From: Methylophaga frappieri
GTDB lineage: Bacteria; Pseudomonadota; Gammaproteobacteria; Nitrosococcales; Methylophagaceae
Length of the DNA: 32,000 bases
Assembly: GCF_000260965.1 (NCBI RefSeq)
Contig: NC_017856.1
Coordinates: 540,001-572,000, forward strand
Direction of reading: 5' to 3'
Shown: positions 1,050 to 16,268 of the stretch, in pieces
How positions within the stretch are numbered: the stretch's first letter is position 1
Layout: each line of letters opens with the position of its first letter
The notes under the pieces: generated by a model
Told to the model about the DNA's origin: nothing
The model's input: the letters and a program-made list of their open reading frames with translations, nothing else
Database searches by the model: none
Made by a program: the position numbers and the translations under genes

Positions 1050-1316
1050 GTTCAACCCCATCTTTTGAACAATTATTCATAAAGTATAGCTCATGGGAAT
1101 AGTCATACTCTCAATTTATTGCAGAGTTAGGATATAGCAACTATTCTTAATGCTATGGATAGAAACCACAGGGAGCTAGTGTTCGTTGTGTAGCGGCTGA
1201 AAGGTTTAGCATCGTATCGAAAAAGTACTATTAGTTAATGATAACGTTGATGGGTGCAGCGACACCGTTGAGTATTTTGAATTGATTTTTCATGCTAAAT
1301 TTTTTGGTAATAGTTT

Positions 1317-2807
1317 ATGAATAAGATTTTTCGCGTTTTTTGGAATTCAAGTTTACAGGTGTGGCAGGCAGTCGGTGAAAATAGTAAAGGTCGTAAAAAG
1401 TGTAAGGTTGGCGCCTCTAAGGCCTCAGGTCGGCTTATTGCTTCTGGTGCTCTGACGCTGTTGAGCGCTAATGTTTTTGCTGCTGACTTACCTACCAATG
1501 GAGTGGTTGTCTCTGGCCAAGTGGCGATCGAACAACAAGCCAACGTGATGAATGTCACCCAGTCTAGCAACAAAGCTGCGGTTAACTGGCAGTCCTTTGA
1601 TGTGGGCAAGAATAATACGGTTAACTTTGTTCAGCCCAGCGCCACCTCAGCCATTCTTAATCGCGTCATTGGCAGCGATGTGTCTAGCATCCAAGGGGCT
1701 ATTAATGCCAATGGTCAAGTCTTTTTAATCAACCCAAACGGCATTTTATTTACTCCTAGCGCACAAGTTAACGTAGGTGCGCTGGTTGCCTCTACGCTTA
1801 ATATTAGCAACGAAGATTTTAACTCCGGCAACTATGTCTTTGCAGGCGATAGTAGCAGCGCCATTATCAACCAAGGCAACATTCAAACCGCTGATGGTGG
1901 TTATGTTGCATTTATTGCCGCCAAAATCGAAAACATCGGCAATATCACGGCCAACAATGGCGAAGTATTGATGGGTGCTGGTGCAAAAGTGACCCTAGAT
2001 ATGGGCGGCCCAGTGAAGCTTGAAGTTGAGCAAGGCGCTATAGATTCACTGATTGCCAACGGCGGCGCGATTCAAGCCGATGGCGGCATGGTGTATTTGT
2101 CAGCAAAAGCCGCTGGCGACTTAGCCTCCAGTGTGATTAACCACACAGGCATTGTTGAGGCGAGCAGTTTAAGCAGTGTGGGCGGTGAAATTATTCTGGA
2201 AGGCGATAACATCAGCTTAGCCGCAGGCAGCGAACTCAATGCCACCGGTGCAACAGGGGGTGGAGACATATTAGTAGGCGGCGATTGGCAAGGCACAGGC
2301 GACATGCGCCAAGCGGTATCCGTTGATATGGCAGCAACGGCCAGCATTGATGCCAGCGCCACGCAATATGGCGACGGCGGTAAAGTGGTATTGTGGTCTG
2401 ATGTTGCTAACGCTGAATCTGTAACCAGCGTTAGTGGCGACATCACAGCCAGTGCAGGTGCAGAAGGTGGTAATGGAGGCAAGGTTGAAACCTCTGGATA
2501 TCTTCTAAAAACAAGTGGAGTAAGCCTTGATTTAACCGCCGAAAAAGGTAGCGGTGGTTTATGGTTATTAGACCCTACTAATATCACTATTTCTGGTTCG
2601 GCTACAACAGCAGGAGCAACACCCTTACCTAATTATGAATCAAATGTTGATAGTTCTAATGTTTTAAATTCTGACATCGTAAACCAGTTAAACTCAGGTA
2701 CGAGTGTAACAATTCAAACAGGAAGTGGAGGCGCTCAAGCGGGAGATATTACCCTCGCTAGCGATATTGTTACCGGTAATATGGCCGGTGATGCAACGCT
2801 TACGTAG
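1317..2807 (+). pseudogene. 5' fragment (496 aa) of a two-partner-secretion exoprotein (filamentous hemagglutinin / CdiA / HecA family)
   Basis: It has an extended signal peptide region MNKIFRVFWNSSLQVWQAVGE. This is followed by a TPS (haemagglutination activity) domain: NGVVVSGQVAIEQ..VTQSSNKAAVNWQSFDVGKNNTVNFVQPSATSAILNRVIG...INANGQVFLINPNGILF. Gly-rich beta-helix repeats come next. Such proteins normally run to thousands of aa; this one stops inside the repeat region at the 2800-2807 junction. No TpsB partner is adjacent. Confidence 0.8.
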
Positions 2808-3654
2808 GCGCGGCTAGGACATAGTTTCTTCCAATAGCCCTAAAGTACTCTGTTAGGCCTTTAGTTATAAATGTCTTACCTGTTCCGGCGTAACCTTTTA
2901 ATAGGAATACGCTTTCTTCCTTATTGCTGAGAAACGAATCGAGCTTATCAACCAATAAACTTTGTCCATCAGTTAAATTGTATTCAGAGAAAGCGTCGTG
3001 AAGTTTAATTAGCTCTCGAGTGTTTTCGGGTGCCAGGTCGAATGTTGATACAGCCCTTGATGATGCTTCCTTGAAATCGGCTAGTTTAACTTGGTCTAGT
3101 TCTTTTTTGAGTTCGAGTGCCTGGTTTTGAGCGATTTGTTCTGATTCTTCAAGTTTCAAGAGCTCTTCTTTTACTTTTTCTAATTGCTCTTCAAGCTCTT
3201 TGTTACTCTGGCTTAGCGCGTTTAGCCCTATATCAGGGTGGCAGGGTTCTATATATGCTGGGTAACTTTCATATGTTGATCCGCTATATGTTTTGAACAT
3301 CCACTGACCGATCAAATATGCATCTCTCAGTAGTGCTAACGCATCATCTGAATGTACGCTTCGGCCATGTGCCGCTTTATTTCCTAACATCCGGATTGCG
3401 TGCAGCTTTTCCACAATATTTTCATCGATTACTTCGATGAAAATATTGGATTTTAGTTTTTCGAAGAACCCATCACTTCGCTCGCAAGGTAAATTTAGTT
3501 CTCTATAGAGGATCCCTACTAACTGTTCAGCAAAGCAACGTAATTTGATAATTGCAGTGTGAGGATCAGTATGTACATATTTCTCAGCGAAATTGGCATG
3601 TTCATATAGTTGAGGCCAGCGGTTTTTTAACAATTCAAAGTTCTTATTGGGCAT
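2800..3654 (-). pseudogene. DUF4145-like N-terminal domain, coiled coil, and the first ~50 aa of a RecD/Dda-type (AAA_30-like) helicase; 3'-truncated
   Basis: The N-terminus (AIIKLRCFAEQLV...LHAIRMLGNKAAHG) fits the DUF4145 pattern. A coiled coil follows (EEQLEKVKEELLKLEESEQ). Then comes LTDGQSLLVDKLDSFLSNKEESVFLLKGYAGTGKTF (Walker A) and VLAAPT, followed by a stop. Helicase motif Ia normally continues APTGxAA. SD AAGGA lies 8 nt before the ATG at 3654. Confidence 0.65.
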
Positions 3655-5010: not shown

Positions 5011-5033
5011 AAAAAAAGGGGCCGAAGCCCCTT
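5011..5033 (-). terminator. Rho-independent terminator ending the long minus-strand operon
   Basis: The minus strand reads AAGGGGC-TTCG-GCCCCTT followed by TTTTTTT. It begins 3 nt after the TGA stop of the primase-like gene (5037..5039). Confidence 0.85.
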
Positions 5034-6104: not shown

Positions 6105-6150
6105 ATAACCTCCTTAAGTAAAATGCCAACTCCTACCACTGGTGGTAAAA
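6105..6150 (-). repeat. Partial copy of the intercistronic element (ACCACC palindrome only) upstream of the primase-like gene
   Basis: The mRNA strand reads TTTTACCACCAGTGGTAGGAG...TTAAGGAGGTTATATG. It shares the ACCACC box but lacks the CCC..GGG bipartite stem. Confidence 0.35.
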
Positions 6151-6194
6151 GTCAGCTTGGGTCCTGCATTAGCCGTTCGGTTAATACAGGATCG

Positions 6195-6536
6195 TTAGTC
6201 AAGCTGGATACCATGTCGTCTTAATAGCCACATGATGGAATCACGAAGCACATCAGGATCGACAACCGCAGCCATTGCGCAAACACGAAAGCAAAATGGC
6301 GCAATTTCGTCATTTTGAATCCACGACAACACATCCTTTCGCAATCGAGTACTGACACGACCGTCTAGCAATACACGGATCGCATCCAATAGAATGCCTT
6401 CGCGTAACTGCCAGATTTCCGCGTCAGACCAAGTGACTGGGGCATCATCAAACTCAAATAGAAATTCGAGCTGTGATGATGTGTGATGATGGGACTGCTT
6501 TTGTGATGTAGGAGAATGGGCAATACGCCCATTCAT
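6195..6536 (-). CDS. Hypothetical protein (113 aa), translationally coupled to radC
   Basis: Its ATG (6536..6534) overlaps the radC TAA stop by 1 nt (TAATG). No motif was recognised. Confidence 0.5.
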   Translation of the reverse strand: MNGRIAHSPTSQKQSHHHTSSQLEFLFEFDDAPVTWSDAEIWQLREGILLDAIRVLLDGRVSTRLRKDVLSWIQNDEIAPFCFRVCAMAAVVDPDVLRDSIMWLLRRHGIQLD

Positions 6537-7033
6537 TAAAGATAACCGCGTTCGGCAAGCGAAACGCAGCCCTCGGATGCGACCACGACATGGTCAAGCG
6601 TTCGAATATCAACAAGTGACAAGGCGTCACGGAGTCGATGAGTAATGCGTTTATCAGCTTCACTTGGCTCAGGATCACCCGATGGATGGTTATGAACCAG
6701 TATCACTGCTGCCGCATTAAATTCTAGCGCTCGCTTTGTTACTTCCCTTGGATACACGCTCGCTGCATCTAAAGTGCCTTTGAACAGCTCTTCAAATCGA
6801 ATAACGCGATGCTTTGTATCAAGAAACAGCACGCCAAAGACTTCGTGCTCATACTCGTGCATCAGTGTTTGCAGGTATGAGAACGCCGACGATGGCTGTT
6901 CAATTTTTCGACCTTTACTCAATCGACCACGGGCAAGCTTGAGCGCCATATCTAAGATATCCGCTTCAGTCACTTGCTCAGGAACGATATAAGTACCGGC
7001 TTCTTCGCCAGCTAAGAACTTTTTGTTTTTCAT
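6536..7033 (-). CDS. radC: RadC-like JAB/MPN domain protein
   Basis: JAMM motif VHNHPSGDPEPSEAD, plus typical RadC context (EHEVFGVLFLDTKHRVI...LFKGTLDAASVYPREV). Confidence 0.85.
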   Translation of the reverse strand: MKNKKFLAGEEAGTYIVPEQVTEADILDMALKLARGRLSKGRKIEQPSSAFSYLQTLMHEYEHEVFGVLFLDTKHRVIRFEELFKGTLDAASVYPREVTKRALEFNAAAVILVHNHPSGDPEPSEADKRITHRLRDALSLVDIRTLDHVVVASEGCVSLAERGYL

Positions 7034-7107
7034 AGGAGTCTCCCCAAAAAAAAAGCGGAGACGAACCCATGCCCTGAAGGGGACGGAATCGTCCCCGCAG
7101 GGTGGTA
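7034..7107 (-). repeat. Intercistronic two-hairpin element (copy I), upstream of radC
   Basis: mRNA strand: TTACCACCCTGCGGGGACG-attc-CGTCCCCTTCAGGG, then GTCTCC-GCTTTTTTTTTGG-GGAGAC-TCCTATG. The SD sits inside the second stem. Confidence 0.7.
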
Positions 7108-7119
7108 AAATTGATGCGG

Positions 7120-8775
7120 TTACTGAATTAACAGTTGTTGTGTTACTTCGAATAACTCACGCTTCAGATCTTTGACGTCATTAATCACAATGCTTTGAGG
7201 AAAGAATTTCTCAACACTGCGTGTTTGAATCCCGATCCCCAGCAGCTCAAAGCCACTGCGTCTGCACCGGTCAACAATGTCATGCGTGGCAGCCCAATCA
7301 TCTGGGTCACCATCCGTTAGCACTATCATTAGCTTTCGCTTCTGTTTTTGTGCTAACAAACTGTTTGCCGCAAACCACATCGCTTGTGCCATAGGCGTAC
7401 AACCTCGTGGTTTTTGGTCAAAACAGGCGGCCCGATGTCGAACCGATTGCTTGGGCAATAACGCGATAGAAACTTCCTGATGAATACCAGGAAAATAACT
7501 GACCGCAGGTACAACACCCGGTATACCTTCCAATGCCATGGCCAAAGCCAAAGCGGCTTCATTGGCAACATGAAAGTACTTGCGATTACCTTCGCCAATG
7601 GGCTTACCCATTGAGCCCGATATATCGACAAGCAAGTGCACAGCAGCATTGGGCGCAATGCGAGGTTGCCTTTGAATAAACAATCTCGATTCACCTGCTT
7701 GTGAGGCGGCAAGACGATGGGTTGCAACTCGAAGACCGTGCCGTTTAGCATGATTCCGATTGTCCTGACTGGACTGAACCATGCCCCTAAGTCGGGCTCG
7801 AATTTGAGCCGACTCTGACGCCGATAAGGTCAAGATGGCCTCATCACCCAACATAGCTTGCTCTGCTTGGGGCAAACTGAGAGGTGTGACGCCCTGATGT
7901 CCTTCAGCTTGTTCCGACAACACTTCTGCCACTTGGGCAAAGGTATCGGGTTCAAACTGAGCGGCACTGGCCTCTAAGGCTTGTCGCAAATTGTCAGCTT
8001 GATCAGAGTTATCAGAATCACCCGTTTCAGCAGCATCCCCTGTTGCAGACAAACCTGTTTCCGGGGTTTGACTGTCACTACTGTTATTGCTGTCATTACT
8101 CGCATCTTGTCCAATGTCATTACCGCTATCAGCATCCGACTCATCCTGTGGTGGACGAGATTCTTCTTCCAACATGGCAACGATGGCATCGACAAGTTTT
8201 AGCACTTCACCTGTAGACGCCAGGCTAGGCACTGCTGTCAGCATGGCGCTTAACCGGCTCATCGCTGCGGCAGGAAAGAGTTGTCTCACTCTTTCATCGA
8301 CTGCTTGATACAAAGGCGTCAGCGCTTTCTGGCCCAGAAAATGGCATCTCAAGCGAAACAACAACCAGGCTTGCAAGTTAGATGCAGGCTCAAGCTGTTC
8401 AGGTACACACATTTGCTGTGTGTCCACCATGTACTCAATCACTTGCGAAATACTGCGCCGGGTTCCGGGGTAGTCCTTTGCCAATTCGTTTTCAATGCGA
8501 ACATCCTCAATAATATTGAGAAGTGCCTTACGGATCGGCTTGGTCGACGCCTTCTGCACCATGTCAAAATTGGTATGCCGAATATGCGCCGCTTCATGAG
8601 CCAGATAACCCCAAGCTATCTGTTGATAGTGTGGGTCGTCTGGGTTTGCTGTTGGGATCACAATCCGCTCACCATCTGTAAACGCATCTTGTCCTTGAAT
8701 AAGCACCTTCAAACCAAACTTTTCGCCATAAGCGGCGGCAACGATTGGCAGTGCATTTTTTAATGGATGATTCAT
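7120..8775 (-). CDS. vWA-domain protein with N-terminal HExxH metallopeptidase-like domain (CobT-like partner of the CobS-like ATPase)
   Basis: HExxH motif at YLAHEAAHIRH. An acidic S/D/N-rich linker follows (DESDADSGNDIGQDASNDSNNSSDS...). The C-terminal vWA domain carries a MIDAS motif, LLVDISGSM, and later MIVLTDGDPDD. Confidence 0.75.
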   Translation of the reverse strand: MNHPLKNALPIVAAAYGEKFGLKVLIQGQDAFTDGERIVIPTANPDDPHYQQIAWGYLAHEAAHIRHTNFDMVQKASTKPIRKALLNIIEDVRIENELAKDYPGTRRSISQVIEYMVDTQQMCVPEQLEPASNLQAWLLFRLRCHFLGQKALTPLYQAVDERVRQLFPAAAMSRLSAMLTAVPSLASTGEVLKLVDAIVAMLEEESRPPQDESDADSGNDIGQDASNDSNNSSDSQTPETGLSATGDAAETGDSDNSDQADNLRQALEASAAQFEPDTFAQVAEVLSEQAEGHQGVTPLSLPQAEQAMLGDEAILTLSASESAQIRARLRGMVQSSQDNRNHAKRHGLRVATHRLAASQAGESRLFIQRQPRIAPNAAVHLLVDISGSMGKPIGEGNRKYFHVANEAALALAMALEGIPGVVPAVSYFPGIHQEVSIALLPKQSVRHRAACFDQKPRGCTPMAQAMWFAANSLLAQKQKRKLMIVLTDGDPDDWAATHDIVDRCRRSGFELLGIGIQTRSVEKFFPQSIVINDVKDLKRELFEVTQQLLIQ

Positions 8776-8836
8776 GGGAGTCTCCTAATCATTAGGGGGA
8801 ATACTCCCTCAGCGGGAGCGTTTCCCCGCTGGGAAT
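8776..8836 (-). repeat. Intercistronic two-hairpin element (copy H), upstream of the vWA gene
   Basis: mRNA strand: CCCAGCGGGGA-aacg-CTCCCGCTGAGGG, then GGGAGT-attccccctaatgattaggag-ACTCCC-ATG. Confidence 0.7.
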
Positions 8837-8844
8837 GTAAGTGT

Positions 8845-9285
8845 TTAAACCTGTGCTTTTAGCTTATCCAGGTCGTATTTTTGACCTAACCAAGACACCA
8901 ATTGAGCTGGACTCTCGTGCTGCTCAAATGACGTTTTAAGCTGGTCTAAACTCAGGATGTCATCCAATGTCAGACCGTACTGGTCTTGTAACTGAGTAGA
9001 CACCTCGTGTTGATATTGCAGCCAGGCCCGCTCAAAAGCGGTTTGCTGCAATGCCATGTTTGGAACAAACACCATGGCCGTTACCCAAACACCTTGCCCG
9101 TCCGCATCTGCGATCAGTACAGGGTTCTTGGGGATCACGACACTATGTGTTGAGTACGACCGTTGTACTAACGTTCGACAACACGCCACTTCTGGTATCG
9201 ATTCACTTTCAACAGCATCAGTCACACCACGAAAATGCGGCTCAAGCTGCTTCAGTTGGCTGGGTTTATGGATGATTGATTGCAT
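8845..9285 (-). CDS. Hypothetical protein (146 aa), SXT s072-position
   Basis: ORF with ATG start and SD AGAGGA. It is co-directional in the operon. No motif was recognised. Confidence 0.55.
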   Translation of the reverse strand: MQSIIHKPSQLKQLEPHFRGVTDAVESESIPEVACCRTLVQRSYSTHSVVIPKNPVLIADADGQGVWVTAMVFVPNMALQQTAFERAWLQYQHEVSTQLQDQYGLTLDDILSLDQLKTSFEQHESPAQLVSWLGQKYDLDKLKAQV

Positions 9286-9346
9286 AAATTCCTCTTACAT
9301 AGTTCAGAGGACATGCGCCCTTAAGGGCAACATGCCCTCAAGGACG
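9286..9346 (-). repeat. Intercistronic two-hairpin element (copy G)
   Basis: mRNA strand: CCTTGAGGGCA-tgt-TGCCCTTAAGG (10 of 11 bp), then CCTCT-gaactatgta-AGAGG-aatttATG. Confidence 0.6.
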
Positions 9347-10300
9347 TTAAAAATAAAATGAGTTTGGTACAGTCGAACCAAGGTTTGGTCTGACGGTTGG
9401 TTGGGGTATTGCACGCAAGTTATCTGCCTGAGCAGATACTGGCTGTGCAGGTTTAGGTTCAGGTTTGGGCATCAGTTGCCTGATATCCAATTGACCTTCC
9501 CCGTGCATTCTCATCTTGTCTGGATCAGACAAAATTAAAATGGTCGCCATCAGTTCGTGATAGAGATTGTCTGTCACAGGGCCGGTCTTCGGCAGACGAA
9601 CAAATAAATTGTTCATCGCTTCAACCATCGGCTGAACTCGATGATCCAGGAAGGACAAACCATCCAACTTGTCTCTTAACCGTTTGAGAGGGTTAAGGGC
9701 TCGCTGACTGATTTGATTCTTACCTGCAACGGAACGCTCAAACAGTTCGTTGGCATCACGAGCTACCTCCCTAAAGAGGGTGTGCCCCATACCATTGACC
9801 TTGTCATCTAAGCCTCCAGCTTGTTCAGCCGGTTGCATTCGATAGATGGCATAATCGAACTGAAGCCGTTGTTCCACGTCTTCGATGGGTGACAGCGCAC
9901 GCCGGATTGCATCTGCAAATTCCGGGTGTTTTGCAACCCAGTCAAAAGTCACCTGATCATAGTTGTCCAAGAACAACTGCTTGCACTGCGCAAACTCCTG
10001 ACCGATTCGGTCAAGCTCTGGAACAATCTGATCAATTCGGTCTTCAGGGACGGCATAGCCACCTAAAAACCGCACACCGACTTGCTCACACAAGCGCTGC
10101 GCTTCTTTCTTAAGCCTTTCAAAGTTCGCCAATGCCTCTGGGTCGCAAATTTTTTTACTCCCTAAGCTGGCAACATCCTTCGGTGGAAGTTGGCTGCCAT
10201 TGGCTAACCTGAAATCTTCAGGCCTTAGTTTTTTTCTACCGCTCCAGATGGAACAGTCGATGTGACAAATCAACAGTTTGTCGAGGGTTTGAATACTCAT
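9347..10300 (-). CDS. Hypothetical protein (317 aa), SXT s071-position (possibly DUF3150-like); ends in ...VPNSFYF
   Basis: Long ORF with ATG start in the conserved operon. The family call is positional and from memory only. Confidence 0.55.
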   Translation of the reverse strand: MSIQTLDKLLICHIDCSIWSGRKKLRPEDFRLANGSQLPPKDVASLGSKKICDPEALANFERLKKEAQRLCEQVGVRFLGGYAVPEDRIDQIVPELDRIGQEFAQCKQLFLDNYDQVTFDWVAKHPEFADAIRRALSPIEDVEQRLQFDYAIYRMQPAEQAGGLDDKVNGMGHTLFREVARDANELFERSVAGKNQISQRALNPLKRLRDKLDGLSFLDHRVQPMVEAMNNLFVRLPKTGPVTDNLYHELMATILILSDPDKMRMHGEGQLDIRQLMPKPEPKPAQPVSAQADNLRAIPQPTVRPNLGSTVPNSFYF

Positions 10301-10368
10301 AGTGCATCCTCATGCGAGATGGGGACGCACCACTCCCAACAGGAGCAATGGCCCCCATTTGGGTGGTA
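10301..10368 (-). repeat. Intercistronic two-hairpin element (copy F)
   Basis: mRNA strand: CTACCACCCAAATGGGGG-ccattg-CTCCTGTTGGG, then GTGCGTCC-ccatctcgcatga-GGATGCAC-tATG. Confidence 0.6.
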
Positions 10369-10398
10369 GTAGTTGACGCGCTAATGGCAACATCACTA

Positions 10399-11166
10399 TC
10401 AGAAATAGTAATTTTGCGAATCAGGCGACGATTGGTTGAGATCGATTTTCGCAGGCATTAAGTCCAGTGCTTCAGCTATCGGGCGAACCCGTTCTAAATC
10501 ACTGCCTAATAACCTCAATACATCTTTTTCCAACTTAAGTTGGTCGGATACTTCTATCCCTTCAGGACTCGCTACTGTGAGCGAACACAGTGGAGGTAAT
10601 TGACGCTTAAAGGCCAGTAACAGCAACAATGGCCACGGGCCATCATCAGTGTTAACAATGCCAGCGCCTTCACCTGACACCATGCTGATTTGATTGGTTC
10701 TAGGTAATCCGCTTTTGCAAAACCCTAATGACCATTCTCCAATCCTGACCTGGTTATCATCAATAACAGCCAAGCCATAGGCTTCAAGCAGCTTTGCCAT
10801 ATCGAACAACGCTTTTTGCGCCAGCGATATTTGGCCATTGACGTCCTTGCGAGTACGAAACTCCCAACTGACGTTATTGGCGCACGCGAGGCTATCAAGC
10901 GCATTTGAGAGTTCAAATGGCCGCCCTTGATGATCAATGCCGACTTGACCAACCAATCGATAACCCTTGTTGATTTTCTCATTGATTCGTCGGTCTGCTT
11001 CAGCGTTAGGATCAGTCGAATCAATCAATCGCTGCTGCGACAATTGACCAGCTTTTCCAAACCGAACTTCAATCTCCTGGGTATCCGATCCAACGTAAAT
11101 GGCCCATTCTTTGGCTGTCCCATCAGAATGACTGTAACGGTAAAGAGCAAAGCACTTTTCCATCAT
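10399..11166 (-). CDS. WGR-like domain protein (255 aa), SXT s070-position; ends in ...SQNYYF
   Basis: The N-terminus KEWAIYVGSDTQEIEVRFGKAGQLSQ....AEADRRINEKINKGYRLVG follows the WGR-domain pattern, with FGK in place of WGR. The likely start is ATG 11166, which overlaps the cobS-like TGA stop (TGATG). The track start at 11169 is TTG. Confidence 0.5.
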   Translation of the reverse strand: MMEKCFALYRYSHSDGTAKEWAIYVGSDTQEIEVRFGKAGQLSQQRLIDSTDPNAEADRRINEKINKGYRLVGQVGIDHQGRPFELSNALDSLACANNVSWEFRTRKDVNGQISLAQKALFDMAKLLEAYGLAVIDDNQVRIGEWSLGFCKSGLPRTNQISMVSGEGAGIVNTDDGPWPLLLLLAFKRQLPPLCSLTVASPEGIEVSDQLKLEKDVLRLLGSDLERVRPIAEALDLMPAKIDLNQSSPDSQNYYF

Positions 11167-12125
11167 CAATCCTCCCAGTGGTCACCGAAGACATCAGCGG
11201 CAATACGGTGAATGGCTTCTCGTTGCTCCAACTCAGCACGAGCCGTCAAAGACCGAGCCAGTGCATATTCCACTGCGTTAGGAGCGCCTTTAAAAGCAAG
11301 TGTTAGCTTTGCCCAGCGCACCAAGGTCCGAGTGGACATGGTGATACTAAGCTCAGCACCGCCATCCGCGCCCCCAATAAAAAGACGACGAATGTCACCA
11401 GCCACTTTCACCATTTTTTGGCGAAAGACTTCTGGTAAGCCCGGCGCAACGTTCTCCAGAATGGCTTCCTCTACAGAAGGCTCTGCATAGGTCGCTTCGA
11501 TGATTCTAAAGCGATCAAGAAAAGCCAAATTCTGTTGAAGCACACCTTGATATAAGCCCGTTTGATCACCGCTGCCCGCACTGTTGCCGGTTGCGATAAA
11601 ACGAAACTTGTTATGTGGCATGATGATCTCACCGCCATTTTGTGCGATGACCAACGGGGCACCTTCCAAAATGTCATTGAGCCCAGCCAGTTCAGCAGGC
11701 TCAGCAAGATCCATTTCATTAATGATCAGCAAATGGCCATGCTTTACAGCCAGTGCCAGCGGTCCAAACACAAAGGTCATGTTGCCATTAACCAGCGTGT
11801 GGTGACCGATAAGATCGGACAACTCCAATCGACCGTGCGCAGTAATTTGCTGAACAGGCCAATTCAATCGAGAAGCAACTTGGCAAATTAGCGAGGTCTT
11901 ACCGCATCCAGTGGGGCCTGTAATATACAAACCGTCACCGTCTGGGTTAGACAAAAACGCCAATACGTCACGTAAATCTTCTTTTCTAAAAACATACTCG
12001 TCCTTGCAAACGGGAATGTTTGGATGAGTAGTGTCGGCACTAAATCCTTCCAGAACGAAAGCATCAGGAGCCGGGACATTAAACGCTTGATTCACTTGAA
12101 CCAAAAATGGGGATTGTTCAGTCAT
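11166..12125 (-). CDS. cobS: CobS/MoxR-like AAA+ ATPase (319 aa from the proposed start)
   Basis: Walker A is GPTGCGKTS and Walker B is HLLIINEMDLAEP. I place the start at ATG 12125 (MTEQSPFLVQ...). The 39 codons upstream in the track ORF consist of the repeated intercistronic stem-loop element. Confidence 0.75.
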   Translation of the reverse strand: MTEQSPFLVQVNQAFNVPAPDAFVLEGFSADTTHPNIPVCKDEYVFRKEDLRDVLAFLSNPDGDGLYITGPTGCGKTSLICQVASRLNWPVQQITAHGRLELSDLIGHHTLVNGNMTFVFGPLALAVKHGHLLIINEMDLAEPAELAGLNDILEGAPLVIAQNGGEIIMPHNKFRFIATGNSAGSGDQTGLYQGVLQQNLAFLDRFRIIEATYAEPSVEEAILENVAPGLPEVFRQKMVKVAGDIRRLFIGGADGGAELSITMSTRTLVRWAKLTLAFKGAPNAVEYALARSLTARAELEQREAIHRIAADVFGDHWED

Positions 12126-12192
12126 GGTAAACCTCATCAGTTTTGACGAGGCCCCATGCCCCAACAGGGAATGAAGTCCCCGTCGGGTGGTG
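12126..12192 (-). repeat. Intercistronic two-hairpin element (copy E), upstream of cobS-like gene
   Basis: mRNA strand: CACCACCCGACGGGGA-cttcat-TCCCTGTTGGGG, then CCTCGTCA-aaac-TGATGAGG-tttaccATG. Confidence 0.7.
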
Positions 12193-12300
12193 TGTTGATT
12201 GTGGTATGGCTGTGTATGTAAGAGTTCAGCTCGCTCTATCATTCGTACCCAGCATTGGCTACGAGTGAAACTGCTTTCTGATGCACTCGATGTAAGTGCA

Positions 12301-12325
12301 TGAGAAAGGAGCCGAAATCGGCTCC
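12301..12325 (-). terminator. Terminator-like or attenuator hairpin inside the operon, just after exo
   Basis: The minus strand reads GGAGCCG-ATTT-CGGCTCC followed by TTTCTCA, which is a weak U-tract. It starts 10 nt after the exo stop. Confidence 0.35.
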
Positions 12326-12334
12326 AAGTGAACG

Positions 12335-13351
12335 TTAAAAGTAAAATGAGCTCGGCGAGTCACCTGGCAGAACCAAGATCTCTTGCTCAAGGCTGATTTT
12401 GATTGGTGTTTCAACGGGCTGCTCTGGCTTATTGGTGCTGATACGCAACCGCTCTTGTGGCGCTTTTCGGTAAGCAGCTAAAACCTGATCGTCCAGCTCG
12501 CCTAATTTATCGGTGGCCAATTGCTTATAGTCCACCGTACCCGCCATCATGTAGCGGCTGAGTTTGACCCCAGCATAATCGGCATGAGCGTAGTTACCCA
12601 TCATAGCGACCAATTTCGACTGAGCGTCTCGCATTTCTTCTTTCAAAGATTTGATGTGATTTTCCAGTCGGACCACTTCGGCATGTGCTGAGCAATACTG
12701 GCGAGACAACGATGTCCAGCGGTATTGAGCTTCACCCTTGGGAACAAAACAATCTTGCTCTGGGCATTTTGACGGTTCTTTTTTGGTCTGTACTAACTCC
12801 CAAAACTGAAGCGCTGTTTCTTGCAATTCAGTTAAGAACAATGCGTCTCGTTGTATTTCAAACTCAATCAGTTGATCCTCAAAATAGAAAACCAACCAAC
12901 CACGCGTGCTATTGGCGACCAGTATTTGATGCTGTACTTGCACCCAATACAACTGGTACGCCTCGCTTTGTTCTCGGTGAGCTTGCACATCCTCAAAAAC
13001 TGACTGGCAAGGACATTTCAGTTCAACGGGTTCGCCCGCATCGTTGATGCCATCAAAGCTGGCTCGAAAGATTGCGTTATGATCGGCTTCTGCACATAAC
13101 GGCAGAAGAAAGTCATTATGCGCATTCTCAAATGCTCGCCTTGCTTGAGGCTCCAACCTTATACCGCGAAGCACATTTGGATTATTCGACAGGTCTTCCG
13201 GTAATACGAATCCGGTTTTTTCTGCCCATAATCGCCAAGGTGTTTTGTAGGGTGAACGCCCCATAATAATTGGGGCTTCAGATGCCGTAACCCCTGCAAT
13301 GCGCCACTGGTGCCATGCAGGAGTACGCTGTGATAGGTCGATAACCTTCAT
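12335..13351 (-). CDS. exo: YqaJ/lambda-Exo-type alkaline exonuclease with ~140-aa C-terminal extension; ends in ...SPSSFYF
   Basis: The N-terminus QRTPAWHQWRIAGVTASEAPIIMGRSPYKTPWRLWAEKTG is the YqaJ signature. The gene follows bet, as in SXT and lambda Red. Confidence 0.8.
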   Translation of the reverse strand: MKVIDLSQRTPAWHQWRIAGVTASEAPIIMGRSPYKTPWRLWAEKTGFVLPEDLSNNPNVLRGIRLEPQARRAFENAHNDFLLPLCAEADHNAIFRASFDGINDAGEPVELKCPCQSVFEDVQAHREQSEAYQLYWVQVQHQILVANSTRGWLVFYFEDQLIEFEIQRDALFLTELQETALQFWELVQTKKEPSKCPEQDCFVPKGEAQYRWTSLSRQYCSAHAEVVRLENHIKSLKEEMRDAQSKLVAMMGNYAHADYAGVKLSRYMMAGTVDYKQLATDKLGELDDQVLAAYRKAPQERLRISTNKPEQPVETPIKISLEQEILVLPGDSPSSFYF

Positions 13352-13407
13352 ATTGCCTCCTTTGAGGGGAGACTCCCCCGAAGGAGAGAACTCCCCTTCA
13401 GGGTTAA
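13352..13407 (-). repeat. Intercistronic two-hairpin element (copy D), upstream of exo
   Basis: mRNA strand: AACCCTGAAGGGGA-gttc-TCTCCTTCGGGGG, then GGGGAGTCTCCCC, then AAAGGAGGcaatATG. Confidence 0.65.
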
Positions 13408-13411
13408 GTGG

Positions 13412-13555
13412 TTACTTTGCAGCTTGTGCTAACGCTGTTTGGTGCTGAACAACACTTACTTGAACCGAATCAATTGCCGCTTTACCGGCTTGAATCGAAC
13501 CTACGACAAGGGCAACAACCAATACCAAGCGAAAAAGTGAGGCTGATTTAGTCAT
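13412..13555 (-). CDS. Small (47 aa) predicted membrane/secreted peptide, absent from the ORF track (below its size cutoff)
   Basis: Hand translation gives MTKSASLFRLVLVVALVVGSIQAGKAAIDSVQVSVVQHQTALAQAAK. GGAG lies 7 nt before the ATG. Its own copy of the intercistronic element sits upstream, as for every other gene of the operon. Confidence 0.5.
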   Translation of the reverse strand: MTKSASLFRLVLVVALVVGSIQAGKAAIDSVQVSVVQHQTALAQAAK

Positions 13556-13620
13556 GGAAGATCTCCAAAAAAAAAGACGAGACCTTCCCCCTGACGGGAG
13601 AATAATCCCGCCAGGGTTCG
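13556..13620 (-). repeat. Intercistronic two-hairpin element (copy C)
   Basis: mRNA strand: AACCCTGGCGGGA-ttattc-TCCCGTCAGGG, then GGAAGGTCTC-gtcttttttttt-GGAGATCTTCC-ATG. Confidence 0.7.
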
Positions 13621-13638
13621 TAAAGTGAATGCGTGGCG

Positions 13639-14457
13639 CTAAGAAGCTAAAGGCTGTGTGAGCGCTTTGGCTGCTTGTTGCTGTGCATTAAATATTTCTT
13701 GTTTCGCAAACGTCAGTTCAACACCTTGAAAATGTTCATTGGCATATTCCAATGCACTATTCCAAGCGTTTGAAGCTTCCGCCCGCTCGATAAGCTTGTA
13801 AACAAGCCCTCGGGTTCGATCATCAACTTGCTCGGGTGGAATCACCGATGGCTCAACAACGTGTGTTGCTTGGCCTTCGATAATTCGCTCCGCTTCGTCT
13901 TGATCGAAAATTCCCACAAAGCCAAACGCAATGCGGGAACACTGGATCATGGATTTATGCCTTAGCATTCGCTTAGTGTGCGTCTGCCATGGACCATCCA
14001 CACGGTAAGGGCCATTTTTGCCGTTACCTTCAAAAGGCGGTCGATAGACTTCATCCAGGTACTCAGTGATTTTGACTGGGTGCGAACGGTCGCGCCGATA
14101 GATAATGCATTCCATCCATTCCGGGCATTCTTTCGCGCCATCCAGTGAGACTTTGGTTTCTGAAGTCTTGAACTCCATGCCATCAAACTGGTCGTGTTGA
14201 TTGATGATGCGAGACCATCCATCGACACCTACCACTGGAATAATTCCAGCTTGTTTATCAGGGAACGCAAAAATCTCTTTGGTGAAAGGGTTCAAGCCGT
14301 ACTGATCTGCAACCACCAAGAGCGCCATCATCTGCTCATTGGTCGGTGCACTACCGTCACGTTGCTTGAATGCTGTTGCTTTTAGGGTATCGAACAACTT
14401 GTTTGGATCGACACTAAAGCGCTCAGCAAAGCGTTGGATTAGCTTTGGTTTTTCCAT
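13639..14457 (-). CDS. bet: Lambda Bet-type single-strand annealing protein
   Basis: LLVVADQYGLNPFTKEIFAFPDKQAGIIPVVGVDGWSRIINQHDQFDGMEF and WQTHTKRMLRHKSMIQCSRIAFGF closely parallel lambda Bet as I remember it. The track start at 14472 is TTG. ATG 14457 (MEKPKLIQ) has GGAG 7 nt upstream. Confidence 0.85.
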   Translation of the reverse strand: MEKPKLIQRFAERFSVDPNKLFDTLKATAFKQRDGSAPTNEQMMALLVVADQYGLNPFTKEIFAFPDKQAGIIPVVGVDGWSRIINQHDQFDGMEFKTSETKVSLDGAKECPEWMECIIYRRDRSHPVKITEYLDEVYRPPFEGNGKNGPYRVDGPWQTHTKRMLRHKSMIQCSRIAFGFVGIFDQDEAERIIEGQATHVVEPSVIPPEQVDDRTRGLVYKLIERAEASNAWNSALEYANEHFQGVELTFAKQEIFNAQQQAAKALTQPLAS

Positions 14458-14520
14458 TGTGGACTCCGACAATCAAAGTGGGAGTCTGACCCTGACGGGA
14501 AAGTACTCCCGGCTGGGTTA
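14458..14520 (-). repeat. Intercistronic two-hairpin element (copy B), upstream of bet
   Basis: mRNA strand: AACCCAGCCGGGA-gtactt-TCCCGTCAGGG, then GACTCC-cactttgattgtc-GGAGTC-cacaATG. Confidence 0.7.
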
Positions 14521-14566
14521 AAGCGTTTTCGCTCGGTTAAAAATCTGGTTCAGGATAAGTTTGTGC

Positions 14567-14956
14567 TCAATTAGTTTGGGAGCCTGCATCATCCGCCGGT
14601 GATGGCTCAGATGCTCTGTTCACACTATCAAGAAGCAGAAACTCGTCCGCGTCCACTTCGGTCAATCGATGCTTAGTGCCATCTTTCTCCCATGATCGCG
14701 TGCGCTGAGGCCCTTGAACAAAAAGCTTCGCTCCTTTTTGGATCAAATCTTTTGCTCTTAGCCCTAACTTAAATCCACCACGATCTCGAAAAACAACCCG
14801 ATGCCATTCCGTATGCTCTTTGAGCTCATTGGATTGACGGTCGCGCCATTTCTCAGAAGTGGCCAGCGAAATGCTGGTCACCAAATCACCTGATGGATAG
14901 GCTCGCGTCTCTGGCTCAGCGCCAACGTAGCCTATGAGTGTTACTTGGTTTTTCAT
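14567..14956 (-). CDS. ssb: Single-stranded DNA-binding protein (129 aa) lacking the canonical acidic ...DDDIPF tip
   Basis: OB-fold signature: VTLIGYVGAEPETRAYPSGDLVTSISLATSEKWRDRQSNELKEHTEWHRVVF. SD GAGGAG precedes the start. The C-terminus is ...SPADDAGSQTN. Confidence 0.85.
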   Translation of the reverse strand: MKNQVTLIGYVGAEPETRAYPSGDLVTSISLATSEKWRDRQSNELKEHTEWHRVVFRDRGGFKLGLRAKDLIQKGAKLFVQGPQRTRSWEKDGTKHRLTEVDADEFLLLDSVNRASEPSPADDAGSQTN

Positions 14957-14971
14957 GATGTTCTCCTCGTC

Positions 14972-15298
14972 TTAGTTGAACTCTGTGCACACAGTCGCTT
15001 CTACCCGGCTGGGCAAAGAAGACTGACGACGCAGATAGGTTGGTATTTCGAGTAAAGCCATGTCGTACTGATGTGGCTCTTTGTAAAACGCAGATGTCAA
15101 ACGGGGCATACCAGGAGCTTTAGGCACTGCCATTGGACGACGTTTTGGTGTTGGTGTGAGCAATCGCTTGATTTGAGTAAGTACAAATCGAAACGGGCGC
15201 ACGCTTTGACGAGCAACCAATCGCAAAAGCGACCAGCTCAGTTTTGCAAGCAACATAATGCCTGCGACTTGGATAATAAATCCGAAGATATATTCCAT
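14972..15298 (-). CDS. Small membrane protein (108 aa), first gene of the operon (SXT s063-position)
   Basis: The N-terminal hydrophobic helix is IFGFIIQVAGIMLLAKLSW. The start is ATG. The SD AAGGAG is embedded in a perfect 11-bp hairpin. Confidence 0.55.
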   Translation of the reverse strand: MEYIFGFIIQVAGIMLLAKLSWSLLRLVARQSVRPFRFVLTQIKRLLTPTPKRRPMAVPKAPGMPRLTSAFYKEPHQYDMALLEIPTYLRRQSSLPSRVEATVCTEFN

Positions 15299-15367
15299 TG
15301 GTGACTCCTTAATTAGGTTGTGAAGGAGTCACCCCCAACTGGGGAAAACTCCCCCAGTTGGGTGGTG
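15299..15367 (-). repeat. Intercistronic/leader two-hairpin element (copy A, best-formed)
   Basis: mRNA strand: CACCACCCAACTGGGG-gagtttt-CCCCAGTTGGG (perfect 11 bp), then GGTGACTCCTT-cacaacctaatt-AAGGAGTCACC (perfect 11 bp), followed directly by AATG. Confidence 0.8.
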
Positions 15368-15665
15368 AAAAGGCGAACCGCAAGGAACGCATGGTTGCGC
15401 ATGTAAAAACATGCAGGCTATTTGTTTAAGGAGGCTAGCTACCTCTTAGTACCACTGAGAAAACTCAGCGGCGGGCTTCCTTTGAGCTCATGCTCTCAGG
15501 CGCAGATATCACTGAAACAGATCAGCAATATTTGATAGTCAGTGTAACCGTCTTATCCGGACAGGATAGTTAGAAAGATGCTCAATTCTTCCACCTAGCT
15601 GAAAGGCCATTACCTCACAGAGGATTAGGCTAGGGACTGATTATTGTCATATCAGGAGCAAACTT

Positions 15666-16268
15666 ATGGCCCAAGCAAAACCCAATTACTCAAAACCCAT
15701 CTTTGAACAATCATTCACAATTAATAGCTTACAGGCGCAACGTGTCGTTGACCGTGTTTTTAGACGGACGGTCAGTGCGCTTTACGGAATCGATGTCATC
15801 CTGCGCATCATTGGCGATGAGAACGAAATTGATGAAGTGGAACAGATCATTAGCCAGTTGATCGAGGATTGCGCTAAGGCGGTAGTCAACGAACAATCTC
15901 GTTTGGACAAATTGATGGAGTCCAACGGCATCGATGAAGTACCTGGCTACACCGACCCGATTACCTTCAACGCTAAAATCAGCTCGCCTCAGGTTGGCCA
16001 GTTTGTCGGCTTAGTGCGCAAACTCGATTCGTTGATGATCTCAATGGACACTCTCTGGTTGTCTAGCGTGCTTAGCAACAAGCAACGTGTTGATGGCAAC
16101 TACGCATGGCAACAGCGCATTATCAAACTTGCACGACGCATTATTGATATCGAAATTCGAGCACGAAAATCAGCCCAAGCTAAGGGTAAAGAAGCTGAAG
16201 TTGAGCAAGCGGTGCCTTCTACCGATGACGATATCACTGAAGAGGAAACAGATAACCCCGCCAACTAG
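15666..16268 (+). CDS. Hypothetical protein (200 aa) with acidic C-terminal tail, divergent from the s063-like operon; possible regulator
   Basis: SD AGGAG lies 7 nt before the ATG. The protein is predicted helical, and its tail is STDDDITEEETDNPAN. It vaguely resembles ICE/plasmid DUF1845/PFL_4669-type proteins, which I cannot verify. Confidence 0.55.
   Translation: MAQAKPNYSKPIFEQSFTINSLQAQRVVDRVFRRTVSALYGIDVILRIIGDENEIDEVEQIISQLIEDCAKAVVNEQSRLDKLMESNGIDEVPGYTDPITFNAKISSPQVGQFVGLVRKLDSLMISMDTLWLSSVLSNKQRVDGNYAWQQRIIKLARRIIDIEIRARKSAQAKGKEAEVEQAVPSTDDDITEEETDNPAN

Follow-up and report, generated by a model that had tools for sequence, protein, structure and literature searches.

The locus studied here raises the question of why the same kind of RNA structure stands before most cistrons of one operon. 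The window (the whole 32-kb stretch of DNA that was analysed) represents an SXT/R391 integrative conjugative element (ICE), with 97% identity to SXT/R391 ICE copies. The operon of interest, s089-ssb-bet-exo...s073, lies on the minus strand, is activated by SetCD and contains 13 cistrons. Its genes are concerned with DNA repair and defence evasion, and its carrier is an SXT/R391 resistance element. According to the literature, s089...s073 is a single polycistronic SetCD-dependent unit, and the strongest SetCD peak is found at s089, the first gene of this recombination operon. At its other end, we found a terminator:

5016..5033, minus strand: canonical intrinsic terminator, AAGGGGCUUCGGCCCCUU followed by U7, which closes the operon after s073

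Anatomy of the module

We found that 9 of the 13 cistrons are preceded by a module of about 62 nt, which consists of a G+C-rich hairpin (H1) and an abutting hairpin (H2). Fold z-scores were obtained for the sense strand against 200 dinucleotide-preserving shuffles, and R1 is a covariance model of H1 only; bits and E-values are from the R1 search of the window. The copies are lettered in mRNA order, from A (15299..15367) to I (7034..7107):

15300..15362, minus strand: copy A, before s089 in the operon 5′ UTR; H1 15334-15362 (13 bp, -22.8 kcal/mol), H2 15300-15333 (11 bp, AAGGAG in the 3′ arm); z = -6.4; R1 41.3 bits, seed of R1
15296-15298, minus strand: ATG start codon that follows copy A
14462..14518, minus strand: copy B, before bet; H1 14489-14518, H2 14462-14486 (GGAG paired); z = -3.2; R1 31.2 bits
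13556..13616, minus strand: copy C, before orfZ (47-aa ORF); H1 13589-13616 (11 bp), H2 13556-13588 (U9 in the loop, GGAGA paired); z = -7.0; R1 34.3 bits
13355..13403, minus strand: copy D, before exo (YqaJ-family); H1 13376-13403 (12 bp), H2 13355-13373 (GGAGG paired); z = -3.0; R1 32.6 bits
12123..12187, minus strand: copy E, before a CobS-like AAA ATPase gene, at the 3′ end of a 209-nt gap; H1 12160-12187 (11 bp including 2 G-U), H2 12123-12158 (SD and AUG paired); z = -5.8; R1 29.6 bits
10299..10363, minus strand: copy F, before a DUF3150 gene; H1 10335-10363 (bulged A), H2 10299-10333; z = -3.8; R1 19.1 bits, E = 0.007, non-seed
9290..9346, minus strand: copy G, before a gene for a 146-aa hypothetical protein; H1 9316-9346 (variant outer stem CCU...AGG), H2 9290-9311 (AGAGGA paired); z = -6.0; R1 12.4 bits, E = 0.29, non-seed
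8776..8833, minus strand: copy H, before a VWA (CobT-like) gene, the most degenerate copy; H1 core 8810-8831 (outer CC/GG bulged), H2 8776-8808 (AGGAG paired); z = -4.1
7031..7102, minus strand: copy I, before radC; H1 7072-7102 (5 + 7 bp around a 1x2 internal loop), H2 7031-7071 (U9 loop, SD and AUG paired); z = -5.5; R1 21.3 bits, E = 0.002, non-seed

H1 has the form R-CCC-N4-GGGG / loop / CCCC-N4-GGG(G), and its size is nearly constant (about 28-29 nt). In all nine window copies, the gap between H1 and H2 is 0-4 nt, and the 3′ arm of H2 holds GGAG, AGGAG or GAGG. H2 often pairs the AUG too; its 3′ border lies 0-4 nt before the ATG, or the ATG is inside H2.

The nine copies listed in the initial annotation all fold as two hairpins on the mRNA (minus) strand, with z from -3.0 to -7.0. 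The proposed sequestration of the Shine-Dalgarno sequence (SD) was also found in every copy, with a probability of SD pairing of 0.75-1.0. Meanwhile, 14 other genes of the window gave z from -2.3 to +1.0, with neither a strong fold nor SD pairing. In addition, the T9 loops described for C and I and the perfect 11-bp stems described for A agree with our results under the mRNA-order labels. However, not every copy is well formed: the VWA copy (8776..8836) folds but is degenerate, its stem is bulged, and R1 found no sense-strand match there at E <= 10.

Two other details had to be changed. ACCACCC is not a separate box, since its CCC belongs to the outer 5′ arm of H1; in several copies the CCA or CAC before CCC lengthens H1 by pairing with a downstream TGG or GTGG. 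Furthermore, the sequence at 6105..6150, taken earlier for a partial copy, holds a different hairpin without the CCC/GGGG core and without an R1 match, and it was rejected as a module:

6125..6156, minus strand: unrelated 14-bp hairpin, then AUUUUACUU, U-rich tail; upstream of s073 (DUF7146/primase-like) and flagged as terminator-like

Selection on RNA structure

The copies are alike in structure, not in sequence. The longest exact match between the nine window copies has a median of 6 nt, which equals that of shuffled copies. In the H1 alignment, which was fitted by R1 (the model rewards CCC/GGG, and invariance there is overestimated), pairing cells amounted to 91.7% versus 74.6% in shuffles, and the covariation score was 0.41 versus 0.12, a value reached by 0 of 500 shuffles. 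Rungs 4-7 of H1 show all six pair types. When 28 copies were gathered by position, the outer CCC was present in 24 and an A at -1 in 20. It had been proposed that selection acts on RNA structure rather than on DNA sequence, and this is supported both by the covarying middle stem pairs and by the excess of G·U over A·C on the sense strand (84:38, p = 4e-5). Among 54 SXT/R391 orthologues, 29 changes led to G·U and 14 to A·C, and loops were more variable than stems; this signal is moderate (p = 0.03), with many pair-breaking singletons.

The copies could also serve as DNA repeats, that is, as microhomologies or palindromes for single-strand annealing by the Bet/Exo of the element, or as pause sites for Exo. 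An annealing-repair role was proposed for the intergenic rpt repeats of IncC plasmids by Roy et al. 2020 (PMC7498323), who reported Bet/Exo repair between intergenic repeats down to 7 bp and noted palindromes within the repeats. The rptI-IV repeats contain palindromes and, like the module, lie in the intergenic gaps of this region; a module, in the form of H1 and half of H2, is part of the long repeat (> 100 nt) that precedes vcrx089 and vcrx094. However, what defines rpt repeats is identity at the DNA level and use in Bet/Exo annealing, whereas RNA structure defines the module, whose DNA identity in SXT is not above chance. Moreover, rptI and rptIII are missing from SXT/R391 (Roy et al., PMC7498323). 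The copies are oriented strictly with the mRNA and have a fixed place relative to start codons, SD and anti-SD form the arms of H2, and G·U is preferred to A·C. We therefore regard a role as DNA repeats as very unlikely.

Since G·T wobble is tolerated in DNA, strand asymmetry alone cannot separate RNA from sense-strand DNA. The element is transferred as single-stranded DNA, and the strand that is passed on in conjugation might fold into these hairpins, which would serve as priming or ssi-like sites or protect the strand as it enters. This seems scarcely plausible, because a DNA hairpin gives no reason for a 34-nt distance to the start codon, for the SD content or for the avoidance of coding sequence. 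In addition, the hairpins lack -35/-10-like features and are far shorter than Frpo/ssi elements.

Distribution of H1

R1 found no other match in the 32-kb window, and in 88 kb that comprise an E. coli ICE and its chromosomal flanks, all its matches fell within the operon. In a 161-kb IncC plasmid, the matches were confined to the gene array from vcrx087 to the toprim gene (27 kb). No Rfam family matches the module. To describe the spread of H1, we used the best 150 R1 matches from 22 loci of alpha-, beta- and gammaproteobacterial elements. Among these 150, 128 were sense-strand matches and only 2 were antisense matches independent of a sense match. For 116 of the 128, the stretch 16-52 nt downstream holds a start codon that has an SD and opens an ORF of at least 40 codons, and the median distance from H1 to the start codon was 34 nt. 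The spacer between H1 and H2 in the surveyed modules had a median of 2 nt.

In IncC, pS44-1 and some 20 other elements, with DNA that can no longer be aligned, the architecture is kept at orthologous as well as non-orthologous starts. For instance, both hairpins are kept at the starts of Bet, Exo and VWA orthologues of Azospirillum, Comamonas, Alcanivorax and others, and their sequences differ.

Probable translational attenuation

In the modules from the best 150 matches, H2 had a median MFE of -13 kcal/mol (about -8 to -18), and the SD was paired with P > 0.5 in 92%. We consider it likely that the module is a cis-acting part of the translation-initiation region of the downstream cistron, in which H2 attenuates and H1 may be a clamp or insulator. 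The upstream anti-SD arm of H2 would pair the SD, and often the AUG, and would keep the translation of each cistron low despite very strong transcription of the operon. H1 may be a fast-folding clamp that fixes the folding register of H2 and probably stacks on it. It could also keep upstream sequence and terminating ribosomes off H2 and block exonucleases, and it may be a common operator for a factor that unlocks all cistrons together. We infer attenuation by all copies, as well as every role of H1.

It had been stated that no description of this element was known, which is too strong. PMC4542580, citing Garriss et al. 2013, mentions that bet of SXT is preceded by a strong translational attenuator, which also exists in IncA/C plasmids, and Roy et al. 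2020 (PMC7498323) predicted an RBS-sequestering structure for IncC vcrx089. Judged by position, copy B (14462-14518) is probably the attenuator cited in PMC4542580; functional data are reported for the bet copy alone. The vcrx089 structure is, also by position, the IncC module copy before the ATPase gene (locus L002). Both resemble the module in that they are formed by the mRNA of a highly transcribed operon and impede its translation. However, the passages concerned treat them as single sites, with no repeated family before nearly every cistron, no conserved upstream H1 and no alpha- or betaproteobacterial spread.

The module might instead respond to ribosomes or to heat; the initial annotation had named heat control, processing and a binding protein as options, with no preference for one of them. 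Under translational coupling, ribosomes that terminate upstream would melt H1 and free the SD; among 109 modules, 31 have the upstream stop no more than 10 nt from H1, and in 14 it abuts H1 (e.g., TAA-CCC). However, the stop is more than 10 nt away in 78 of the 109 and more than 60 nt away in 32. The earlier suggestion of coupling does not fit a module that is tied to the downstream start, has its upstream stop anywhere from 0 to 274 nt away and also occurs in 5′ UTRs. Furthermore, when the 5′ arm of H1 was removed in silico, the probability of SD pairing stayed at 0.86 and only 1 of 116 modules opened. As a thermometer, H2 would be melted by heat. This appears unlikely from the predicted energies, because at its median MFE it exceeds known thermometers by far in stability, and the U-runs sit in loops and are not paired to the SD. 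Taken together, coupling or a thermometer is highly improbable.

One point counts against the attenuation reading. Bet, Exo and Vcrx089/090 act during transfer, so they must be made even if all cistrons are strongly attenuated, which hints at an unlocking step.

Possible roles of H1

H2 alone would suffice for attenuation, and attenuation does not explain the conserved H1 or the near-invariant unpaired purine before CCC. One possibility, which we think rather unlikely, is that H1 is the binding site of a dedicated trans factor (element-encoded, or a host protein or RNase) that opens or locks H2, and that all cistrons of the defence-evasion region are switched jointly. The sequence of H1 is kept beyond pairing (R-CCC, inner GGG/CCC and 3′ G), and H1 has a constant size and stands at a fixed distance from H2 and from the AUG. 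The identical element type stands ahead of unrelated genes (at least 48 downstream protein clusters at the 22 loci, among the best 150 matches) and is limited to one co-regulated region per element. In addition, the stability of H2 implies very low unassisted initiation. However, the loops, which would be the usual surface for protein recognition, vary in length and sequence, and a search of Pfam, NCBIfam and PDB sequences found no RNA-binding domain in the operon proteins. A need for stability alone may account for the conserved G+C tracts, and their conservation is inflated by R1's choice of matches. Moreover, the sole genes common to all surveyed loci are those for large enzymes.

A similar arrangement is found in phage Mu, in which the Com protein binds a hairpin beside the translation-inhibition structure of mom. 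There too, neighbouring hairpins lie in the initiation region, the 3′ one burying the SD and AUG and the 5′ one separate. Nevertheless, there is a single site in Mu, with a zinc-finger activator that is known, whereas each element studied here has 9-21 sites and a binder that is only hypothetical.

H1 could also act in mRNA processing and stability, which we regard as unlikely in its own right but which is compatible with the attenuation module and not exclusive of it. The polycistronic RNA would be cleaved either within the A/U-rich loop of H2 or in the A/U-rich segment directly 5′ of H1. H1 would then set segmental half-lives, by shielding the 5′ end of the downstream cistron as a stem-loop or by stopping 3′ exonucleases at the end of the upstream cistron. 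H1 is very stable (-13 to -23 kcal/mol) and is preceded by a G-poor, A/U-rich single-stranded consensus, WWYYAA. The H2 loops, with 6% G and rich in U and A, fit this reading, and neighbouring cistrons differ in RNA-seq read counts in the pVCR94 dataset. However, with 11-13 bp the stems would be short substrates for RNase III, and AACCC does not match the RNase E consensus (RN↓WUU). Since H1 keeps its position relative to the start codon that follows rather than to the stop codon before it, it is not primarily a 3′ stabiliser. It also lies well inside 5′ UTRs; vcrx087 has a leader of about 153 nt between its transcription start and the ATG, and published coordinates put the s089 UTR at about 420 nt.

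The RNase III sites of phage T7 resemble the modules as hairpins between most genes of a long mobile-element transcript, and both could define stable mRNA segments. However, each T7 site is one irregular hairpin, about 20 bp long or longer, that has an internal loop and is not tied to the SD, whereas the stems of the module are shorter and pinned to start codons. REP/BIME sequences are likewise short, G+C-rich imperfect palindromes in the intergenic gaps of operons, and REPs can stabilise upstream mRNA. REPs are spread over the whole host chromosome in either orientation, with a conserved sequence and a link to RAYT transposases. In contrast, the module is confined to a single operon of a mobile element and to one orientation; its sequence diverges but covaries, and its distance from the start codon is fixed.

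Structure of the module and its place in the operon

We found that an mRNA-sense RNA module buries the Shine-Dalgarno (SD) sequence before most cistrons of one operon in the window. Its conservation extends well past the range in which sequences are still similar, and it is confined to one co-regulated region. It is about 62 nt long and consists of a conserved G+C-rich hairpin (H1) followed by a hairpin with the SD in its 3′ arm (H2). The window shares ~97% identity with SXT/R391-family integrative conjugative elements (ICEs) of E. coli, Proteus, and Vibrio, and in the annotated E. coli ICE copy the genes of this region all lie on the minus strand. According to Poulin-Laprade et al., the operon is one SetCD-dependent transcript, driven by the strongest SetCD-bound promoter, which is divergent from s063. 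The operon is also described in the literature as highly transcribed.

Features of the operon in the window
Minus strand, gene order: small hypothetical (s089), ssb, bet, 47-aa ORF (orfZ), YqaJ-family exonuclease (exo), AAA ATPase, hypothetical, DUF3150, hypothetical, VWA, radC, hypothetical, DUF7146/primase-like (s073)
15299-15367, minus strand: module copy A, before s089, first of the nine copies lettered A to I in mRNA order
7034-7107, minus strand: module copy I, before radC, last of the nine copies
5016-5033, minus strand: canonical terminator closing the operon, from terminator scan and folding

The module precedes 9 of the 13 cistrons. Of the other four, ssb is separated from s089 by only 15 nt, two cistrons overlap their upstream neighbor, and s073 has an unrelated hairpin. 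The initial annotation had described two hairpins in nine gaps, and all nine indeed fold as two abutting hairpins on the mRNA strand. Its details of the single copies are also correct once the letters are taken in mRNA order. However, the copy before the VWA gene, which it had called well formed, has both hairpins but is degenerate. In addition, what it listed as a "partial copy" (6105-6150) proved to be a hairpin of 14 bp with a U-rich tail and no relation to the module, and its separate ACCACCC "box" turned out to be the outer arm of H1 with a stem extension, not a box of its own.

In the window copies, H1 starts with CCC, ends with GGG, contains an inner GGGG/CCCC block, and is 22-31 nt in total (usually 28-29). 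Between H1 and H2 there are 0-4 nt. H2 has GGAG, AGGAG, or GAGG in its 3′ arm; in three copies (radC, ATPase, and DUF3150) it pairs the start codon as well. Individual stems are 11-13 bp. With dinucleotide-preserving shuffles, the fold z of the nine copies ranged from -3.0 to -7.0 on the sense strand (mean -5.0) and averaged -3.5 on the antisense strand, and the sense strand folds better in seven of the nine. For comparison, the fold z of 14 other window genes was -2.3 to +1.0. The probability that the SD is paired was 0.75-1.0 in the nine copies. Meanwhile, the pairwise identity between copies was only 53-71%, and the longest exact match between copies had a median of 6 nt, equal to that of shuffled copies. 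The window copies have structure in common, not sequence.

Several known elements were compared with the module and rejected. REP/BIME elements occur in many copies across the host chromosome, in both orientations and with a conserved sequence, whereas the module matches only in the mobile-element operon or region (with no match in 13 kb of E. coli flank and 92 kb of the remaining IncC plasmid), in one orientation, and with inter-copy identity equal to that of shuffled copies. Integron attC sites are imperfect palindromes at the 3′ side of the cassettes and carry conserved core sites, R'' and R' (GTTRRRY). The copies compared by sequence contain no GTTRRRY cores, and the module is tied to the downstream start codon rather than to the upstream gene end. 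Intrinsic terminators, which are G+C-rich hairpins with a U tract directly behind them, were also rejected, because none of the H1 or H2 hairpins of the nine copies was picked in the terminator scan and no U tracts follow them; the scan picked 5016-5033, 12308-12325, and 6125-6156 instead. Furthermore, Rfam 15 gave no match at gathering score in the window and 8 related loci, and only chance-level matches in the operon at E ≤ 5.

Distribution of the module in related elements

A tblastn search with the ATPase as query led to an IncC plasmid of V. cholerae (NZ_CP007636; 59% protein identity), Aeromonas pS44-1, and a Methylomonas plasmid. None of these three loci aligned to the window at the DNA level. 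The homologous gene array of IncC and pS44-1 has both hairpins in nearly every gap, and their modules also occur before genes absent from SXT and in 5′ UTRs. In a set of 28 copies chosen by their position, CCC and ATG were 52-74 nt apart (mostly 58-64), H1 ended ~30-35 nt before the ATG, and a purine preceded CCC in 26. A DUF3150 profile scan added another 54 elements of the SXT/R391 type, together with 24 distant loci. The distant loci are from Azospirillum, Comamonas, Competibacter, Alcanivorax, Maricurvus, Marinobacterium, Salinisphaera, Azomonas, Edwardsiella, and others. At the starts of bet, exo, and VWA, both hairpins are kept in 10-14 elements from three proteobacterial classes despite differing sequence, and these orthologous starts are the clearest evidence of selection on structure.

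When 27 modules were aligned with MAFFT alone, the arms were displaced by 1-2 nt, and RNAalifold consequently recovered no more than 5 pairs. Thus, this alignment was replaced by a covariance model of H1 only (R1), built from a hand-registered seed. The seed held ten H1 copies of near-equal length with a hand-given 11-bp structure and one N pad in 28-nt loops, and matches were realigned to the model. A scan of the ICE, IncC, and related elements with a covariance model, which the initial annotation had proposed, was run with R1; in the window, the E. coli ICE, and the IncC plasmid, the matches were confined to the operon or array, and further matches came from a set of 22 loci.

Matches of R1
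Window, filters off: five copies of the seed, 29.6-41.3 bits; three copies outside it, 21.3, 19.1, and 12.4 bits
E. coli ICE with chromosome, 88 kb: every match inside the operon, none in the 13 kb E. coli flank
IncC plasmid, 161 kb: 25 of 25 matches between vcrx087 and the toprim gene, ~99.8-126.8 kb
22 non-redundant loci, 357 kb: 165 matches at E ≤ 0.3

In the window, R1 also gave weaker mirror images on the opposite strand. It had no match in the window tra genes (filters off) or in 92 kb of the remaining IncC plasmid, which hold tra, rep, par, and resistance genes. Among the best 150 of the 165 matches, 128 were sense and 22 antisense; 20 of the latter mirror a sense match and 2 are independent. 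An SD and a start codon with an ORF of at least 40 codons lie 16-52 nt downstream in 116 of the 128 sense matches, and several of the remaining 12 stand before a conserved unannotated small ORF. In these 116 modules, the H1-to-start distance had a median of 34 nt (interquartile range 31-38 nt), and H1 was separated from H2 by a median of 2 nt. The MFE of H2 had a median of -13 kcal/mol, with a mean of -12.8 vs -6.8 when the 5′ part was shuffled; H2 loops contain only 6% G. The probability of SD pairing had a median of 0.93 and exceeded 0.5 in 92%. In addition, H1 never overlaps the upstream ORF and lies 0-274 nt from the upstream stop codon. Thus, the module belongs to the downstream translation start and not to the upstream gene end. 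Furthermore, 48 different protein clusters were found downstream of modules, most of them unique to one locus, so any gene that occupies these arrays either brings the module along or acquires it.

The passage of Roy et al. 2020 (PMC7498323) on the rpt repeats of IncC proposes a role in Bet/Exo repair, and the modules could likewise be read as DNA-level repeats for such repair. This suits a long IncC repeat that holds a module. However, it does not account for the strict tie to strand and start codon, and it was rejected as an explanation for SXT, where exact matches between copies equal those of shuffled copies. We consider it very unlikely.

Selection on the RNA structure

In an alignment that is fitted to the structure, with a model that itself selects for CCC/GGG, 91.7% of the H1 paired cells were paired vs 74.6% in shuffles, and the covariation score was 0.41 vs 0.12, a value reached by 0 of 500 shuffles. 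The signal was lost when partner columns were slid. Three outer C-G and three inner G-C pairs are nearly invariant in this alignment, and all pair types are present at rungs 4-7 and rung 11. On the sense rows, G·U exceeded A·C by 84:38 (p = 4e-5; 77:36 in non-seed rows), which points to the sense strand as the folding strand. The 54 SXT/R391 orthologues gave moderate evidence of selection on structure: the fraction of variable columns was 0.22 in stems vs 0.36 in loops, and there were 29 changes to G·U vs 14 to A·C (p = 0.03), together with 34 other pair-breaking variants.

Taken alone, the wobble asymmetry is also compatible with single-stranded DNA hairpins on the transferred strand. Nevertheless, such hairpins would leave both the SD pairing and the fixed start-codon distance unexplained, and we regard them as very unlikely.

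Possible function of the two hairpins

The SD lies in a stable local hairpin on the sense strand of the reported transcript, and we rate the module among the SD-sequestering attenuators. In its passage on bet, a review (PMC4542580, citing Garriss et al. 2013) reports that hairpin disruption raised translation, for the bet copy only. Likewise, the passage of Roy et al. 2020 (PMC7498323) on vcrx089 gives a predicted structure that likely sequesters its ribosome-binding site. We infer that all copies attenuate translation via H2, which would pair the SD in each copy and lower the translation of the downstream cistron.

The initial annotation had also offered translational coupling and thermosensing, and both are disfavored. 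Coupling does not fit the stop-codon distance of 0-274 nt. In addition, when the 5′ arm of H1 was removed in silico, the probability of SD pairing was 0.86 vs 0.86 and only 1 of the 116 modules opened. The SD thus stays paired, and H1 is no anti-anti-SD switch or coupling device. In an RNA thermometer the SD is held in a weak and imperfect hairpin, which melts at 37-42 °C, and in the fourU type a U-run pairs with the SD. H2 is too stable for a thermometer of the ROSE or fourU type (MFE -7 to -18 kcal/mol), and its U9 runs are in the loop and not opposite the SD.

For H1, we favor a role as a clamp or insulator of H2, and it might act as a nuclease barrier as well. A function in mRNA processing or stability is less likely and would be compatible with attenuation. 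At T7-type sites, RNase III cleaves a helix that spans some two turns (20 bp or more) and has an internal loop, whereas the module stems are 11-13 bp; H1 and H2, if stacked, could attain such a length.

A more speculative reading, to which we give a rather low probability, is that H1 serves as the operator of a post-transcriptional regulon. The regulon would comprise the region for anti-restriction, anti-CRISPR, and recombination functions, in SXT/R391 and IncC/IncA as well as in many other mobile elements of proteobacteria, with H1 before 9-21 cistrons. A putative factor or cue, such as arrival in a new host, would then unlock all of the transcript, already made, in one step. The conserved R-CCC...GGG...CCC...GGG(G), constant size, and fixed spacing of H1 leave room for such an operator. 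However, the operon proteins include no candidate RNA-binding protein by Pfam, NCBIfam, and PDB sequence search or by inspection of the small proteins. The product of s089 resembles a membrane protein with a basic tail.

Novelty and significance

The initial annotation knew of no description of the element, but two single copies (bet and vcrx089) are already in the literature. In the literature covered, which does not extend to Garriss et al. 2013 itself, we found no description of the family, of the conserved H1, or of a module before almost every cistron, nor of its confinement to one region or its spread across many mobile elements. SXT/R391 and IncC elements are major carriers of multidrug resistance. 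The genes that follow the modules, including ssb, bet, exo, and the CobS/CobT-like pair, enable them to withstand restriction and CRISPR cutting when they enter a new host. A common RNA device before almost every such gene suggests that their output is set post-transcriptionally, as a second control layer. The SetCD and AcaCD regulon maps are centered on transcription and miss this layer. Furthermore, the RNA motif, which is supported by covariation and has more than 100 instances, is absent from Rfam, and it could be used as a marker for such regions in uncharacterized plasmids and ICEs. The question raised is what, if anything, opens the hairpins.

Additional observations

Between exo and the ATPase gene there is a gap of 209 nt (window 12126-12334, minus strand), which has a terminator-like hairpin at 12308-12325, GGAGCCGAUUUCGGCUCC then UUUCUC, directly 3′ of exo, followed by a second hairpin at ~12270-12295 and then the module. 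This gap may hold an internal terminator or promoter that divides the operon. The IncC ATPase gene likewise stands behind a long gap (219 nt), and in the pVCR94 operon table a unit begins at vcrx089.

In published SXT coordinates, the SetCD box of s089 is 462-481 nt upstream of its ATG, which gives s089 a 5′ UTR of ~420 nt (window ~15299-15780, minus strand). Both divergent SetCD boxes fall within the annotated s063 ORF (15666-16268, plus strand), so the start codon of s063 is probably annotated too far upstream. Meanwhile, the ssb ORF (window 14567-14956) encodes 129 aa here, whereas its counterpart in the E. coli ICE encodes 139 aa, as a result of an indel near the 3′ end, and the gap before the bet module is thereby lengthened to 109 nt.

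On the IncC plasmid NZ_CP007636 (locus L002), a full module at 8321-8400, between vcrx087 and vcrx088, precedes an unannotated small ORF, ATGGAAATCGCTATCATCGCT..., for a hydrophobic peptide of less than 40 codons. It is conserved in five elements (L002, and the compared loci L005 at 7547, L076 at 2482, L081 at 1799, and L074 at 1172). Upstream of vcrx089 and again upstream of vcrx094 (L002 8860-8990 and 13700-13830), more than 100 nt of sequence are nearly identical. This stretch, which probably corresponds to the rptI described by Roy et al. 2020, begins with neither gene but comprises H1 and the 5′ half of H2 together with a small hairpin and the motif CGATAGCTGGTCGCCAAAAACAAACAGCA, which is also present in other gaps.

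A pattern scan of IMG/VR gave single matches at about chance level, plus one IncC fragment, one contig with 4 matches, and one with 3; the module is not a general phage motif. In IMGVR_UViG_2744054769_000001 (L131), positions 11153-11671 hold ~11 model matches on both strands at some seven sites ~60-100 nt apart, which look like palindromic repeats without relation to gene starts. In IMGVR_UViG_2784132062_000007 (L114, 41.9 kb), a contig classed as viral, four same-strand H1 matches lie within 3 kb (497-3355). The contig may derive from a prophage that carries a related gene array, or from a mobile element that was mis-binned.
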